64,000 nucleotides of DNA from Thermococcus sp. JdFR-02 (GTDB lineage Archaea; Methanobacteriota_B; Thermococci; Thermococcales; Thermococcaceae): the NCBI GenBank assembly GCA_002009975.1, contig MTLP01000042.1, positions 256,001 to 320,000 of the forward strand, given 5' to 3'. A program made the position numbers and the translations under genes. This document shows positions 6,671 to 17,290 of this stretch, piece by piece. The stretch's first letter is position 1; each line of letters opens with the position of its first letter. The notes beneath the pieces are model-generated. The model saw nothing but the letters and a program-made list of their open reading frames with translations, searched no databases and had not been told where the DNA came from.

Positions 6671-8593
6671 TCACGCCCTGTAGACTTTAGCGTTTGCAAC
6701 CTTCTTTAAAATGGGAATATACGACATACCCGGGTTTATTCCCTTGCCATTTGTATCATAAATGTTAAGCTCAATGCCTTTCCTTCTCAATGCTTTTGCA
6801 AGCTCAATGATTTCATCTTTAATTCTCTTGCCAAAGAGAGGAACGTTTGCTTTTCCGTCGGTTATTAGAAATGCCCTAACTTTGATGGACTTATCTTTCA
6901 TTCTCTCTCTGTTGGCTAAAAGTAAAAGATTGTATAAAGCAGAGCTGAGAGGAGTCCTTCCTCCAGTTGGAACACTTTCTATTTTTTCAAACACTTCCCA
7001 GTAGTTCTTAGTTGGCGAAACAAAAACCTCAGCCTCTTTACCCTTTGCAACTATCAAAGCCATTTTTGACTTCTTGATGTAGCCGTTCTCAACTAGCTTT
7101 TCCGCTATTCCCTTTGCAATGCTTATTCTTCTCTTCACCGCCATACTTCCGCTTGAGTCTAAGAGCAAAACCCAGAGCGTAGGAGCCTTTGCCTTCCTAA
7201 CCCTAACGCGGACATCCTTTAGCTCAAGCTTTATCGGAGGCTTTTTTCCATTCAACACTGCCCAAATAGTCGAGTTGTAAAAATCAACATCCCTTATTTC
7301 ATCTTTTGGGGGTAGGTAGGAGACAGGAATCCCCTTTGGAAAGTTTACCACAGTAATGCTAACGTCCCTTGAAGAGCGGTAGCCTGTAAAGTCGTTGCTC
7401 CCAAAGTTTTTGCTCTCTATCCTTGGGATTGTAGCTTCGCTTGAGCGAAAATTGTGCCCTAAATTTCCGATTCCTTGACTTTGAGACTTCTGGTTTCTCC
7501 TTTCACTTTTTTCTTCCTTTCTGTGCTCATGCTTATGGTCGTGCTTGTGATCATGATTGTGCTCCTTATCATCTTTAGGCTTTGGCGGCTTCATCTGGGG
7601 CGGCTTTTGGAAGGGCTTGTCCCTCAAGCGGTGCGGTAAAGCTAACTCCATAGCTTTTTCCAAATCCTCAAGAGAAACCCTCCTTCTTCCGTTTAAAGCG
7701 GCTATTGCTTTGGCAGTTTTTATTGTAGTGATTTCAGCTCTGTTGGTCTTTATACCTAAATTAATCACAGCCTCAGCTAAAAGCTTTAGCAAATCATCAC
7801 TTATTTCAACTTTAGGCAAAAGCTCCTTTGCTTTAACAATCTTTTCTGTAAGCTTTTTCTCTTCGCTCTCAAACTTCTTGTAGAAGCTTATTGGGTCTTC
7901 ATGAAATTCCTCCACTCTTTTAACTATCTCTATCCTATCCTCTGGGTTCATTGGTGCTGAAACTTCAACACACAGGCCAAATCTATCGAGGATTTGGGGT
8001 CTTAAGTCGCCTTCCTCTGGATTCATGCTCCCGACTAAGATAAAGCGGGCTGGATGTCTAAACGAGATTCCTTCCCTTTCTATCGTGTTCCATCCCATTG
8101 CTGCAACATCTAAGAGCGAATCGGCTATGTAGTCATCTAAGAGGTTGACTTCATCGATGTAAAGCACTCCCCTATTAGCCTCCGCTAATATTCCCGGTTG
8201 CAGAGCTTTTTTGCCCTCTTTTAAAAAGCGCTCTACATCAATTGTTCCAACCAATCTATCTATTGTAACGCTTAAGGGCAAATCAACAACCCTCATTCTT
8301 CTTTTGGCAATTGGTAAGCTCTCGCCTCTTCCATATCTCTCATAGCAGCTGTCGCACATCTCTAAGGGGTTCATTGGATTGCAGTTGAAGGGACAATCTG
8401 CCACAACTTCAATTTCGGGCAAAACGTTAGCCAAAGCCCTAACTAGGGTTGATTTCCCCGTTCCTTTGTCTCCTTTCAATAAAACTCCACCTATTAGCGG
8501 ATTAACCGCTACACAGAGCAAGGCTAATTTAGCCTTTTCCTGCCCAACTATAGCAGAAAATGGGAAGATTAAGCGTTTTTCACGAGCTTCCAT
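6671..8593 (-). CDS. Chelatase AAA+ subunit, ChlI/ChlD-type fusion (AAA + VWA) with His-rich linker
   Basis: [65 protein letters not shown] motif DSSGSM, GGRTPL and ITDGKAN; linker [14 protein letters not shown]. Confidence 0.92.
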
Positions 8594-11500
8594 ATTTTAT
8601 CCACCTCCTCAATATTTTCACTCCAGTGCTCATCATCTTGGGCAGTGTAGATTTCAATCGTTCCACCTTGAACTTCCCCTTCACCAAGATGTTCCTCCAA
8701 AAGCCCCTCAATTTCAGAGTAAGCTTCCATAAGCCTTTCAATGAGCTCATCGCTCGTCTCCCACAAGCCGCGCTCATAAGCTTCAATCAAACGCCTTGCA
8801 ATTTCCTCAATAGCGTAGGGATTGTGCTCCTCAAACCATCTCCTCATCCCTTCATCAAGAACATACTTTTGCGCTATTTCATCAAAAATCCAGTCTTCAA
8901 CGAGCTTTGTTGTTGCTTCCCAGCCATAGAGATGAAGAATCTTCTTTGAGAACTCGCTCGCCCCTCTATAGCCGTGCTTCTTCATTTCTTCAATCCACCT
9001 GTCGTTGAGAAGCTTTGTCCTTGTTATTCTTTCAATCTCGACTTTAATATCAACAATTTTAGTATCGCTTATGTCTCTTGTATCGACCTGGATTATATCT
9101 ACATCCTTGCCAGTTAGAGCATCTACCGCTGTTTTAAATCCACCGTGATAGGCAAAATAACAGCAGCAGTTCGTTAAGTCATGCTCATCGCTTATGTGGT
9201 TTCTATTGATTACGTCAACGCTTTTGAGGTTCAAAACCAATGATTCATGAGCTTCAATGCCAAAGGCATCTTTTCCATAAGCGTAGCCGCTCCACTGAAT
9301 CCAAACCTTTGCTAAATCCTCCTCCTTTTGCCAACCCGATGACTCAACAGCTAAGTTTACACCAGCTCCATAAGCTCCTGGAGGAGCAGAGAAAACTCTA
9401 AACCTCGCAAACCTTTGGGCTTCTTCAAAACTTTTTCCTAGCTCAATTAGCTTTTTAATATGCTTAATGTAGTGCTTTCTAACGTAATTCATTTCTAACG
9501 GCTCATCCAAGATAACAACCTTTTCTATTGCTTCGTCGATGAGATATATGTAATTTGGCAAAGTATCTCTAACAATTCCGCTTATCCTAACCAGAACGTC
9601 AATCCTTGGCCTTCCGAGCTTTTCTAAGGGAATTACTTCAAGTTCAGAAACTACATCTCCTTTCCAGATAGGCTTAACTCCAAGCAAATAAAGAATTTGG
9701 GCTATTTGTTCGCCATCGGCTTTGTAACCGTCTATACTCCAAAGAACCTGCCCAATGCTTTCGGGATACTTCCCATGCTTCTTATTGTACTCTTCCAAGA
9801 GCTTTTCAGCAGTTTCAACCCCAATTTGCCAAGCTGCTTTGGTTGGCAAAGTTCTTGGATCAACTGCATAGAAGTTTCTTCCCGTTGGCAAAATCTCGAA
9901 CTTCCCTCTCGTTATGGCTCCCGAAGGGCCTGGCTTTACATATTTTCCTCCCACACCTTCTAAAAAGCCATTATATTCCCTTTCGCACTCGACAACTTTT
10001 TGAGCAACTTCAAGGGCTTTTCTAAACGGTTCCTCAAGCTTTTCTTTCTCCTTAACTTTGAATCCAAACTTTTCAATTTCTTCCTCAATGACATCAAAGC
10101 CTTCTCCATTAAGCAAACGCTCTAAGCTTTTAACTGCTATCTTGTGGAAAATCTCCAACAATTCTCTGTTCGTAAATCCATTTGTAGTCTCTAAGGGGTT
10201 CTTTCTTATCTTGTCGTAGTCCGCGCCTATTGCCTCAGCTATCGCCCTTCTAATCGAAGGGGAAGCGTAGGAATCGTAAGCCATTGCCGTGGCAATGTAT
10301 TCCGTCAATCTTTCGGGTTCTTTTGGTGGATACCCAAAGATATGAAGACCGAGATTAATTTGAGAACCTCTCATCAACTCAGCGTAGCGGTGGATTTCCT
10401 CTATCGTTTGCTCTTCATTTTCAGGGTTCGCTATTCTTATCTTGTTTCCTTCAGCTTCCTCCAAAATCTGCTCGTAAATCTTCTTTCTTCTTGCATCATC
10501 TCCCAGGCTCTTTGCCTTTGCATACTGATTCAAGAGCGAATCCAAATCATCCAAAACTTCAGCTATTGCCATTGGTGGATAAATGTGGTCTATTAGCGTT
10601 GCATAACTTCTTCTCTTGGCAATAACGCCCTCCATTGGATTTGAAACTACATAAACGTATAAGTGGGGAACGTCATCTAAGCTTGCCTCGGGAACACATG
10701 AAGGAGAAAGCCCAACGCTTTTCCCCGGCCTAAATTCTAAATAACCGTGAGTTCCAAAGTGAATCACAACATTGGCATTAAACTTCCTCGTTATCCACCT
10801 ATAGACAGCCCACCACTGGTGAGGAGGAGTTATAGTCGGATCATGGAGGATTCTACAAACTTTTCCATCACACCTCGCCCCAGCACAGCCGAACTTTGGC
10901 TGCGGAGTAATGAAAACGTTTCCAAACCTTATTCCAGGAACAACGAACTTTCCATCATAAACCATTCCAACCAATGTTTTGTCCACTTTTCCTGTCAAAA
11001 CGTCCTCTGGTCTTCCCCAATCTTTGACTATTTTTTCTTTTAAGTCCTCGGGAAGCTCATTGAACCACTCCAAATAATCCTCCAAGTTTACGAAGTCAAT
11101 TGCCCCACCATTTTTGACGATTTCTTCCACACTTGTCCATCTAAACTCACTTATCGCTTTTTTCTCCAAAATCATTCTTATTAGCTCTTCTCCATTCTTT
11201 GGAAGCTCTTCCCCAACATAGTAGCCTTCTTCTTTTAGCCTGTGCAGAAGTCTAACTATGCTCTCTGGAACATCCAATCCCATTCCCACTGCAATGCCGG
11301 CTTCGAGTCCCTTACAAGGCGGATTTATCAAAACTATTGCTATTTTAACGTCTTTCTTTGGCTTTTTCCTTAGCTCAATCCACTTCTTCACTCTTTTGAC
11401 GAGGTATTTTATGTGTTCTTCGTATGGTTCGCCCTTTTTGTAGCCCTCAATGTTTTTAGTTCCAGCTATAAATATCGGCTCAATTGCACCCGCGACTTCC

Positions 11501-12315
11501 GGAATTATCACCCCATAAACCTGCGTCATGTAATCAACGCCTTCTTTTTCCTTCCACTCTTTGAGGCTTTGATAATAAGAGCGAATTGGAGCAAATACTG
11601 GGACGTTTAGCTTTTCCAAATTATTTAAATCAACGGTGCCAAAGGAGATTAAACTTACCAGTGCCTCAATAATTGGTTTCCCATCTTTTATGAAGAACTC
11701 CTCAACTGCTTCACTCTTTTCTTTTCCGAGTCCTGTTGTTGAGTCTTTCCCATAGGCAAACACTGGAATAACCCCTAATCCTTCACTTTCAAGTGCTTTG
11801 ATGAGCTCCTCAATCGGGCTGAATTCTCTGTAAAGCCAAGCACTCCTCCAGAATAGAACTCCAACAATTGGTCTCTTATTATAAACCTCCAAATATTCAT
11901 CTAAACTCTCAAAAACCCCAAAATTTGGGTGGTAAATCCCATGCATTGGAACTTCTTTTGGCTCTTCATATTCTCTCTTTTCACCTGCCAAGTTTGCTAA
12001 AAACTTAGCTAAGTTCCTTAGATTCTCCTCACCACCGAGGACGTAGTAGGATTTAGCTTTAACTAAAATTTCTTGCGGAACGTTGTTTAAGCTGTCCATT
12101 GAAACAATCTTTGCTCTGCTCTTCCTTAGCGTCTCTACAACAACATCCGGAAGTTCGTGGGCATAAATGAAAATTACTTCTGCCCTTTCAACTTTTTCAA
12201 GCTCTTTCTCACAGTTCTGTTCTGTTAAAACAACTCCATCGATTTTTTCCTCTTTCAATATTTTCTCAAGCAAAGGCAAAGGTCTTGCACCGTAACCCAA
12301 TATGAAGCAGATCAT
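8569..12315 (-). CDS. cobN: CobN/BchH-family chelatase large subunit
   Basis: [71 protein letters not shown]. Likely start is ATG 12315 after a GGGGGTGG RBS (track start 12345). Confidence 0.92.
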
Positions 12316-17198: not shown

Positions 17199-17226
17199 GT
17201 GCTACTAATTTTTATTTTAGTAATAT
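17199..17226 (-). promoter_or_regulatory. NikR-like operator palindrome
   Basis: GTGCTA-N16-TAATAT with inner CTAA/TTAG symmetry, matching the GTATGA-N16-TCATAC architecture. It lies between the candidate TATA (about 17248-17255, minus strand) and the RBS. Confidence 0.55.
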
Positions 17227-17273
17227 CACAAAAAGCTCAAAGCGTGGATTTTTAACGCTTTTTAAAACAGACA

Positions 17274-17290
17274 GTTGGCAACCAAAGGTT
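17274..17290. promoter_or_regulatory. SurR long binding motif GTTn3AACn5GTT
   Basis: GTTGGCAACCAAAGGTT is an exact match, about 20 nt upstream of the candidate BRE/TATA of the ABC-chelatase operon. Confidence 0.7.

Follow-up and report, generated by a model that had tools for sequence, protein, structure and literature searches.

Introduction

The function of archaeal CobN/ChlH homologues that stand outside the cobalamin and chlorophyll pathways is stated as unclear in the literature. The general idea of salvage is already voiced by the SEED annotation 'CobN-like chelatase BtuS for metalloporphyrine salvage'. In the aerobic cobaltochelatases, CobNST or CobN with ChlI and ChlD (as in Mycobacterium and as the haloarchaeal CobN/ChlID), the large subunit is combined with an AAA+ and a von Willebrand factor A (VWA) subunit. 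HmuS (BtuS), which is encoded in the hmu operons of Bacteroidota, is proof that a member of the CobN/ChlH superfamily can remove metal. In PMC12583661 it is described as anchored in the membrane at both ends, with a Met-rich insert and the motif LSLDHxxEFMGG, as using NADH, and as accompanied by a TonB receptor and by no ChlI/D partner. CobN1 of Methanothermobacter marburgensis is, according to PMC12350162, an archaeal CobN outside the cob pathway that is made only under nickel limitation. Here we analyze an operon of Thermococcus sp. JdFR-02 in which a CobN-like protein is encoded together with an ATP-binding cassette (ABC) importer. It lies in a stretch of 64,000 nucleotides (assembly GCA_002009975.1, contig MTLP01000042.1, positions 256,001 to 320,000 of the forward strand), which is called the window below and from whose first letter all coordinates are counted unless a contig is named.

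The operon consists of six minus-strand open reading frames (ORFs) at 6671-17196 that are tightly coupled: in the ORF list, neighbors overlap or are separated by a few bases at most. Pfam and NCBIfam searches gave the order substrate-binding protein (SBP), FecCD permease, ATPase, Gate-domain membrane protein, CobN-like large subunit and fused ChlI/ChlD subunit (ChlID), in agreement with the six coupled genes listed in a first-pass annotation of the window. We read this locus, with a probability of about 45%, as an accessory, laterally spread nickel-acquisition operon, which is controlled by nickel starvation and by SurR and recovers nickel from a chelate that is taken up and is probably tetrapyrrole-like. 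Tetrapyrrole-type machinery occurs here without ring synthesis and under promoter control of the nickel and hydrogenase type, and the simplest reading that unites these is that the cell imports a nickel macrocycle and salvages its metal. The first-pass annotation had also proposed nickel scavenging; the regulatory half of that proposal and the role outside B12 synthesis stood, the exact 6-N16-6 palindrome on which it drew did not, and nickel acquisition is now the best reading. The literature searched, which did not extend to supplementary tables, contained no description of the operon or of its control by SurR and NikR.

Promoter elements and predicted regulators

The operon promoter carries the motif GTTn3AACn5GTT, the published SurR site (PMC12162507 and PMC8595942). 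The first-pass annotation had reported an exact copy, and the motif was indeed exact on both strands, at 17266-17282 and 17274-17290. Together the two copies form one 25-nt palindromic element, AACCTTTGGTTGCCAACTGTCTGTT (AAC-N5-GTT-N3-AAC-N5-GTT; 17266-17290, −). It lies directly 5′ of the A/T-rich stretch GTTTTAAAAAGCGTTAAAAAT (17248-17268, −), a near-invariant block in the promoter alignments that was labeled, from the archaeal promoter consensus, as the putative transcription factor B recognition element (BRE) and TATA region. No other match to the motif was present in the window; shuffled windows contained 0.43 matches on average, and 7 of 100 shuffles contained at least two. Upstream regions of orthologous operons were collected from Thermococcaceae genomes and gave 20 promoters, or 21 with the one described here. 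The double element occupied the same place in all 21 (11 exact, including its own, and 10 with one mismatch), directly ahead of the near-invariant GTTTTAAAAAGYGTTAAAAAT. Over the 20 distinct promoter sequences, conservation was 96% at the specified bases and 62% at the N positions.

Exact double sites were found twice in the genome, against ∼0.26 expected. At up to one mismatch there were nine, all of them intergenic, and these included surR/pdo, an MrpE-like first gene, the cbiM promoter and the CobN operon. The long SurR motif as such showed no overall excess (20 matches against ∼29 expected by composition), and 14 of the 20 matches were intergenic. Intergenic sites were located between surR and pdo and before two MrpE-like first genes, one of which was confirmed. 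Long-motif sites also stood beside hypA, hypC-hypD, hypE, hypF and genes for sulfhydrogenase subunits; these genes were identified by eye from translations, and for hypA a tblastn search with a Pfam-checked HypA bore out the identification. The SurR-type site of the MrpE-like gene on contig C3 lies ∼12 nt ahead of AAAGTTTATATA, which resembles the relation between site and TATA region in the operon. A SurR site upstream of BRE/TATA stands for activation in the absence of sulfur. The genome encodes SurR itself (371.6 bits against a cut-off of 250; E 5.6e-90 to PF0095). A further double motif with one mismatch is present in the window at 40874-40898, upstream of a ferredoxin-like gene, a pyridine-nucleotide-disulfide oxidoreductase gene and a gene for a Fer4_11 protein (38798-40750, −).

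The second promoter element concerns NikR. An exact 6-N16-6 palindrome had been claimed for the promoter, and this could not be reproduced: when 17197-17356 was searched with spacers of 10-21 and at most one mismatch, the sole 6-N16-6 pair was the low-complexity ATTTTT/AAAAAG with one mismatch, and the exact pairs found had the geometries 6-N8-6, 6-N11-6 and 6-N20-6. The promoter does contain a 28-bp dyad of 7-N14-7 geometry (17199-17226, unstranded; ATATTAC-N14-GTAGCAC on the minus strand), which spans the same length as a 6-N16-6 site, lies between the TATA region and the Shine-Dalgarno sequence and is kept in the orthologous promoters. There it forms the second conserved block, with the consensus (G/A)T(G/A)WTAC-N14-GTAGCAC between the TATA region and the ribosome-binding site. 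A NikR signal, GTGTTAC-N13/14-GTAACAC, has been predicted upstream of nikMNQO operons in delta-proteobacteria (PMC545781), and the dyad of the window differs from it at three positions. The dyad was found at the same place and always with N14 in 21 of 21 operon promoters, with two (n = 10), three (n = 4) or four (n = 7) mismatches to this signal. Among 4200 trials with mononucleotide-shuffled promoters, at most two mismatches were reached 9 times, at most three 72 times and at most four 667 times. Across the genome, 22 sites matched GTGYTAC-N13/14 and its complement with at most two mismatches. Nineteen of them lay within genes and three were intergenic, and two of these three are the CobN operon promoter and the cbiM/nikM promoter. 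A NikR gene is present (232.5 bits against a cut-off of 105; E 2.8e-68 to 2BJ1, a 'nickel responsive regulator'), as it is in 94 of the 97 genomes of the family.

The same layout was found at the predicted nickel transporter. For cbiM, 22 upstream regions were compared (20 family genomes, the source genome and locus L045). All 22 had the SurR-type double element at one fixed place with no or one mismatch. In 18 of them the best-matching NikR-type dyad (GTGYTAC-N14-RTRRCAC) likewise had a fixed location, downstream of the TATA region and ahead of the start codon. In the source genome the operon and cbiM promoters read AACCTTTGGTTGCCAAC...GTTTTAAAAAG and AACCTTTGGTTTCCAAA...GTTTTAGAAAG, respectively. 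NikMNQO/CbiMNQO systems and the operon are therefore alike in having a SurR-type element, then the TATA region, then a NikR-type dyad, with the same predicted regulators. Their proteins are unrelated, an energy-coupling factor transporter for the free ion on the one side and an SBP-dependent type II ABC importer with a chelatase on the other.

A third promoter of this layout, with an exact GTTTGTAACCTCCGGTT and GTGCTAT-N14-GTGATAC, was found in another genome of the family (G020), where it precedes an FmdE-like/SBP/FecCD/ATPase operon that adjoins nikR, hypA and a gene for an Mrp/ParA ATPase (L094, G020:C1:1459500-1468500). In genome G064 (L095) a nikR-FmdE-like-SBP-FecCD-ATPase run was recognized by synteny with G020. 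From this neighborhood, the nikR-linked SBP, permease and ATPase of G020 and G064 are a candidate nickel-chelate ABC importer of the Thermococcaceae. Their FmdE-like protein is a zinc-finger protein, and the nikR-linked importer does not occur in the source genome. Taken together, Thermococcaceae seem to put nickel supply under the joint control of SurR and NikR, with the CobN operon in that set. The combined control proposed by the first-pass annotation is supported by the conservation of both elements in 21 of 21 promoters, by the recurrence of the pair at cbiM/nikM and by the presence of both regulator genes. Regulation by SurR and NikR is thus well supported in silico, and the two proteins would presumably bind the respective promoter sites.

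To our knowledge, SurR is absent from the other phyla that carry CobN loci. In 20 loci from outside the Thermococci (288,718 nt in total), seven sites with at most two mismatches to the NikR signal were found, of which three were intergenic and adjoined the cluster. In a Thermofilaceae metagenome-assembled genome (MAG; L025), GTATTAC-N14-GTAACAC lies 30 nt upstream of CobN, and a second copy of it lies just after Gate, ahead of a gene set with a CbiQ-type gene. The third site, TTATTAC-N13-GTAACAC, precedes CobN by 95 nt in L016, a Methanomethylicia MAG. A tblastn search for NikR homologues near the cluster gave a sole match, in L029; it was not counted, as that locus holds only a stand-alone gene for the CobN C-terminal domain.

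Importer and origin of the substrate

The first-pass annotation had pointed out that the window holds no genes for corrin or chlorophyll synthesis. This is correct and extends to the genome (2.36 Mb, 99.99% complete). Members of the CbiC/CobH family were found in none of the 97 family genomes, with 6 of 14 control genomes positive, and HemC (porphobilinogen deaminase) was absent from the source genome, with 11 of 14 controls positive. These results support the earlier view that the operon does not serve the making of B12. The cobamide genes of the genome (CbiB, a CobD-type aminotransferase, CobS, a CobY-like transferase and CbiP) belong to the lower, salvage part of the pathway. Since the genome lacks ring synthesis, the substrate of the CobN-like protein must come from outside, which fits the importer genes of the operon.

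The importer consists of the SBP (15076-17181, −), with a signal peptide, Cys 22, a Ser/Thr-rich linker and two tandem Peripla_BP_2 domains by Pfam and NCBIfam, a FecCD-family permease of the type II ABC importers (14025-15071, −; Pfam FecCD, 298.9 bits) and an ABC transporter ATPase (13262-14041, −; Pfam ABC_tran). The ORF finder placed the start of the SBP at TTG 17196, and ATG 17181 behind GGTGGTGA is most likely the start. The two SBP halves are 50% identical to one another. Among 20 operons of the family, nine encoded a single-domain and eleven a double-domain SBP, and the SBP is the fastest-evolving part of the operon (48-76% identity where the remaining operon proteins show 76-98%). The NCBIfam equivalog cut-offs for BtuFCD were not reached (BtuC 267 against 461, BtuF 74 against 234, BtuD 121 against 281 bits). 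For the ATPase the best NCBIfam models were heme, F420-0 and corrinoid ATPases, all under their cut-offs, and IsdE was among the sub-cut-off matches of the SBP.

A second system of this type is present in the genome, which encodes two Peripla_BP_2 proteins and two FecCD permeases. The second FecCD and ATPase pair lies in the window at 23093-24848 (−) and has no adjoining SBP; its likely SBP is encoded by an orphan Peripla_BP_2 gene at the beginning of contig C1 (636-1667, −), 255 kb away. The promoters of the pair and of the orphan SBP have TTGGACAAAWAATCCAAAGG in common just ahead of the ribosome-binding site, which suggests that they form one regulon. With the BtuC and BtuF models this system reached 288 and 113 bits, more than the 267 and 74 bits of the operon (all four values under cut-off), and at least one FecCD gene was found in each of the 79 high-quality genomes of the family, whether or not CobN was present. 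On these grounds the second system is more likely the housekeeping importer for corrinoids or another ligand, and the CobN-linked importer would be an extra. The permease of the operon shares 45% identity with the second FecCD of the window and 41% with the NikR-linked FecCD of G020. For SBP domain 1 the corresponding values are 34% (BtuF-like SBP2) and 24% (NikR-linked SBP3 of G020). Both proteins thus stand closer to the BtuF/BtuC-like system than to the one linked to NikR, which mildly favors a macrocycle-type ligand for the importer.

The operon therefore resembles BtuFCD in its set of a Peripla_BP_2 SBP, FecCD permease and ATPase, and the BtuFCD-like pair of the same genome contains its nearest relatives. 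It differs in its tandem SBP, in BtuC and BtuF scores that lie under cut-off and below those of the second system, and in its operator. These comparisons bear on corrinoid salvage, in which cobamides or incomplete or metal-free corrinoids would be imported and CobN/ChlID would (re)insert cobalt as a 'late cobaltochelatase'. Such a function would be in line with the ATP-driven insertion that is the known chemistry of this enzyme class, with the nearest NCBIfam models (CobN, 1275 against 1468 bits, and a putative cobaltochelatase for ChlID), with an ABC module that is nearer to the BtuFCD-like than to the NikR-linked system, and with the cobamide salvage genes of the genome. A review on Haloferax speculates on a cobalamin-salvage role for CobN/ChlID (PMC8305020). 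We nevertheless consider it unlikely, because all equivalog scores are under cut-off and the second FecCD pair with its orphan SBP scores higher for BtuC and BtuF and carries the different operator TTGGACAAAWAATCCAAAGG, and because FecCD is found in 79 of 79 high-quality genomes of the family irrespective of CobN. Moreover, a B12 function leaves unexplained why the SurR- and NikR-type sites are shared with cbiM/nikM and a hydrogenase-centered regulon, and metal-free corrinoids come from an oxygen-dependent route and would be an improbable supply in anoxic vents. If corrinoid salvage were true, the operon would still define a salvage chelatase.

Chelatase subunits and Gate protein

The CobN/ChlH-type large subunit (8569-12345, −; its true start is likely ATG 12315, which overlaps the stop codon of Gate in the sequence ATGA) matched PF02514 (CobN-Mg_chel), the family of class I chelatase large subunits, with 1203 bits (cut-off 24.5) over model positions 2-1088 of 1090. 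It remained under all NCBIfam equivalog cut-offs (1275 against 1468 for NF004646, 1048 against 1926 and 818.4 against 822.05). The active-site motif of the superfamily, defined as HFG(T/A)HG in PMC12583661, is present as HFGTHG at residues 529-534. Compared with solved structures, the protein gave 513 bits to CobN of M. tuberculosis, 508 to ChlH and 414 to HmuS. A simple Kyte-Doolittle scan revealed no terminal membrane anchors and a single marginal internal window (276-294), and the protein is predicted to be soluble and cytoplasmic.

ChlID, the fused ChlI-like AAA+ and ChlD-like VWA subunit (6671-8593, −), has a Walker A motif at residue 41 and the metal-ion-dependent adhesion site (MIDAS) sequence DSSGS at residue 479; the regular expression for Walker B gave no match. 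The nearest NCBIfam model was TIGR02442, a putative cobaltochelatase, with 645 bits and thus under the cut-off of 779. The linker between the two parts contains a His-rich segment at residues 345-358 (7520-7561, −), as read from the sequence. Canonical ChlD linkers are acidic and proline-rich. Twelve of 17 orthologues have at least three histidines in the linker and five have none. Where present, the His-rich linker would point to a histidine-loving transition metal over magnesium. Because the large subunit is predicted to be soluble and cytoplasmic and has an AAA+/VWA partner, the reaction of CobN/ChlID is likely ATP-coupled and would take place after import.

In its large subunit, AAA+ and VWA parts and closest scores, the operon is like the aerobic cobaltochelatases. 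It is set apart from them by sub-cut-off scores, the absence of a supply of hydrogenobyrinate a,c-diamide, the linked importer, Gate, the His-rich ChlD linker and the SurR- and NikR-type sites.

The polytopic Gate-domain protein (12312-13262, −) reached 28.7 bits against the Pfam Gate cut-off of 29.6. Its AlphaFold2 (AF2) model was that of an all-helical membrane protein, with a mean predicted local distance difference test score (pLDDT) of 87.3. Foldseek gave nothing at E ≤ 0.001 against the Protein Data Bank (PDB), where the best matches were concentrative nucleoside transporters (TM ∼0.4), and a search of the ESM Atlas returned solely other Gate-domain clusters.

The subunits also bear on the import of a small nickel chelate, a nickelophore or a complex of the Ni-(His)2 kind, for which CobN, ChlID and Gate would form an ATP-driven device for nickel unloading, storage or insertion, chaperone-like in the manner of MoxR/VWA proteins. 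The same evidence for nickel regulation speaks for this possibility, as do the FecCD-type importers beside nikR and hypA in the family and the His-rich ChlID linker. NiuBDE of Helicobacter, a FecCD-type nickel importer, provides a precedent. Yet the large subunit retains the full CobN/ChlH architecture, with the HFGTHG of the tetrapyrrole-binding cleft, the BtuF/BtuC-like pair, not the NikR-linked one, holds the closer relatives of SBP and permease, and the simpler NikR-linked importer goes together with an FmdE-like protein and no CobN. A small chelate is for these reasons an improbable ligand.

The operon was also compared with the hmu operons, to which the first-pass annotation had drawn an analogy. 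Both combine a CobN/ChlH large subunit having HFG(T/A)HG with an uptake system in a host without ring synthesis, and in both the proposed use is the harvest of metal from an imported macrocycle. This functional likeness can be kept, whereas the tested features specific to HmuS are missing and a ChlI/D partner is present. The operon encodes a soluble CobN, a ChlI/D-VWA partner, Gate and an ABC importer, and its regulation is of the nickel type and not of the heme type. Heme or iron piracy as in hmu, with the CobN homologue stripping iron from imported heme, can be invoked because HmuS is the proven de-chelatase of the superfamily (PMC12583661), because a heme ABC ATPase is the best NCBIfam model for the ATPase and because IsdE is among the matches of the SBP, both under cut-off. 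It appears very unlikely here: HmuS scored lowest among the solved relatives (414 against 508-513 bits); CobN lacks terminal anchors, a Met-rich insert (at most two Met per 60-residue window) and LSLDHxxEFMGG; the operon encodes a ChlI/D motor, which hmu operons lack; and the promoter has a NikR-type site, with no iron-regulator site recognized and no search for iron boxes made. A biosynthetic cobalt or nickel chelatase of an endogenous tetrapyrrole pathway, as the annotation-level names CobN and Mg-chelatase would have it, is close to refuted by the missing CbiC (0 of 97 family genomes) and HemC, both found in controls (6 and 11 of 14), and by the joining of the chelatase genes to an importer in one operon.

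Proposed function

For nickel acquisition we propose the following scheme. In the absence of elemental sulfur, reduced SurR would activate transcription at the time when [NiFe]-hydrogenases are made, and Ni-NikR would repress it; expression would coincide with a shortage of nickel and a demand for hydrogenases. The lipoprotein-type SBP and the type II BtuCD/FecCD-like importer would take up a nickel complex. A macrocycle is its most likely form, either a Ni-tetrapyrrole or a corrinoid-like compound; examples are Ni-porphyrins and F430 with its breakdown products. Once in the cytoplasm, the imported complex would be bound by the CobN-like subunit, and the ChlI/D AAA+-VWA motor with its His-rich linker would use ATP for the extraction of the metal, which would be passed towards hydrogenase maturation. 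Gate could export the emptied ligand or conduct ions. Within this scheme, we infer what the substrate is, that CobN removes metal and does not insert it, and what Gate does. CobN1 of M. marburgensis is similar by description; its host, unlike that of the operon, makes F430 itself, and an insertion role is possible for CobN1.

Several points weigh against this proposal. We know of class I chelatases with ChlI/D motors for metal insertion only and of none for de-chelation. The sole member of the superfamily known to de-chelate is HmuS, a membrane-anchored protein that depends on NADH and works without a ChlI/D partner (PMC12583661). CbiM/Q/O are encoded in the source genome, so that the operon is not needed for simple uptake of Ni2+, and CobN presence was not complementary to CbiM absence across the family, most CobN-positive genomes being CbiM-positive as well. 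Comparison of the SBP with PDB sequences gave no ligand-informative match; the best was an unnamed binding protein (E 1.6e-21), and weaker matches were BtuF (∼1e-11), CeuE and heme binders. The weak fold matches of the Gate model leave its role unexplained. Seven of the 21 dyads stand at four mismatches, a level that 667 of 4200 shuffles reached, and the 21 promoters are related sequences and no independent trials. The NikR consensus used is a computational prediction from delta-proteobacteria (PMC545781), and 18 of the 20 scanned loci from outside the Thermococci had no NikR-type box with at most two mismatches at the cluster.

In a bolder form of nickel acquisition, an ATP-driven class I chelatase would run in reverse as a nickel de-chelatase, and Ni-tetrapyrroles imported by vent archaea unable to make such rings would be stripped of nickel to feed the [NiFe]-hydrogenases, with NikR and SurR jointly switching the system on. 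We hold this to be conceivable but doubtful. Possible sources would be F430 and its decay products from methanogens or anaerobic methanotrophic archaea (ANME), or Ni-porphyrins of hydrothermal petroleum. Were it true, the CobN-ChlID-Gate core of many archaeal phyla would be a general 'metal piracy' module, which would explain orphan archaeal CobN.

With its two-site promoter, CobN-ChlID-Gate core and importer, the operon offers a concrete and testable answer to the question of orphan archaeal CobN. If nickel acquisition is its function, it would represent a new path by which hydrogenases obtain nickel in hot and sulfidic environments poor in the free metal, SurR would be linked to metal supply, and the chelatase superfamily would contain a second, ATP-coupled type of de-chelatase.

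Distribution and gene order

A distribution scan with one genome per species gave 42 loci with a relative of the CobN-like protein. In the Thermococcaceae, 30 of 97 genomes encoded the family (27 of the 79 high-quality genomes), with a scattered occurrence that included each of the six genera. Gene order was identical, SBP-FecCD-ATPase-Gate-CobN-(second CobN)-ChlID, in the five Thermococci loci that reached far enough. Relatives of CobN with 73-75% identity were found in MAGs titled Archaeoglobaceae, Desulfurococcales and Thermoplasmata, and relatives with 48-67% identity in Thermoproteota, Methanomethylicia and DHVE2. By this pattern, the operon is predicted to be an accessory, laterally mobile module. 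Gate homologues adjoined CobN/ChlID in the Thermococci loci; of the 16 other tabulated loci, 13 showed the same adjacency. In distant loci they showed 20-29% identity and were mostly found beside CobN/ChlID, usually just after ChlID.

Distant CobN proteins were often encoded by two adjacent ORFs, one for the N-terminal part (∼750 aa) and one for the C-terminal part (∼500 aa). This was the case in L015, L016, L017, L019, L021, L023, L025 and L028, which are from Thermoproteota, Methanomethylicia and unclassified archaeal MAGs; two Thermoproteaceae loci (L029 and L036) contained stand-alone genes for the CobN C-terminal domain only. A second CobN paralogue (∼33% identity) was located between CobN and ChlID in L002, L005, L006, L017, L021, L028 and L032, and outside the Thermococci it was preceded by a secreted Peripla_BP_2 protein of its own, with a signal peptide. 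This arrangement hints that two ligands may be served by one ChlID motor in these loci.

In the flanks of the distant loci, a Pfam search of 61 proteins gave mostly unrelated housekeeping genes and no consistent partner beyond the SBP/ABC genes and Gate. Isolated matches were CbiZ and a second FecCD pair (L019), a B12-binding radical SAM protein (L016) and a NifH-like fragment (L027). In L005 a divergent hypD lies just upstream of the operon (2757-3905, −), and L007 has an unannotated ORF equal to it in size and place (2993-4141, −).

Expression and neighboring genes

Contigs from two RNA libraries, derived from a relative with ∼95% identity, covered 29 of 30 bins across 6600-17500; as all four RNA runs compared consist of contigs, they do not reveal level, strand or start, and DNA carry-over is possible. 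Metatranscriptome contigs crossed the operon promoter, and one RNA contig ended at 17212, inside the dyad, which is a weak hint of a transcription start at this position. The host family includes a close relative with transcriptome runs from pure culture.

Directly upstream of the operon, a major facilitator superfamily (MFS) transporter is encoded at 17357-18706 (−), which also matches PUCC (bacteriochlorophyll delivery) with E 1.8e-11; it does not adjoin the operon in the other Thermococci loci. At the other end, 5098-5214 (−) duplicates the last 39 codons of ChlID (compared with 6684-6786; 67% identity at the protein level and 81% over 104 nt). The duplicate is situated beside an Lhr-type helicase gene and past a convergent gene with AlbA_2, HATPase_c_4 and helix-turn-helix (HTH) domains (5361-6653), and it looks as if the latter gene had been inserted at the 3′ end of the operon.

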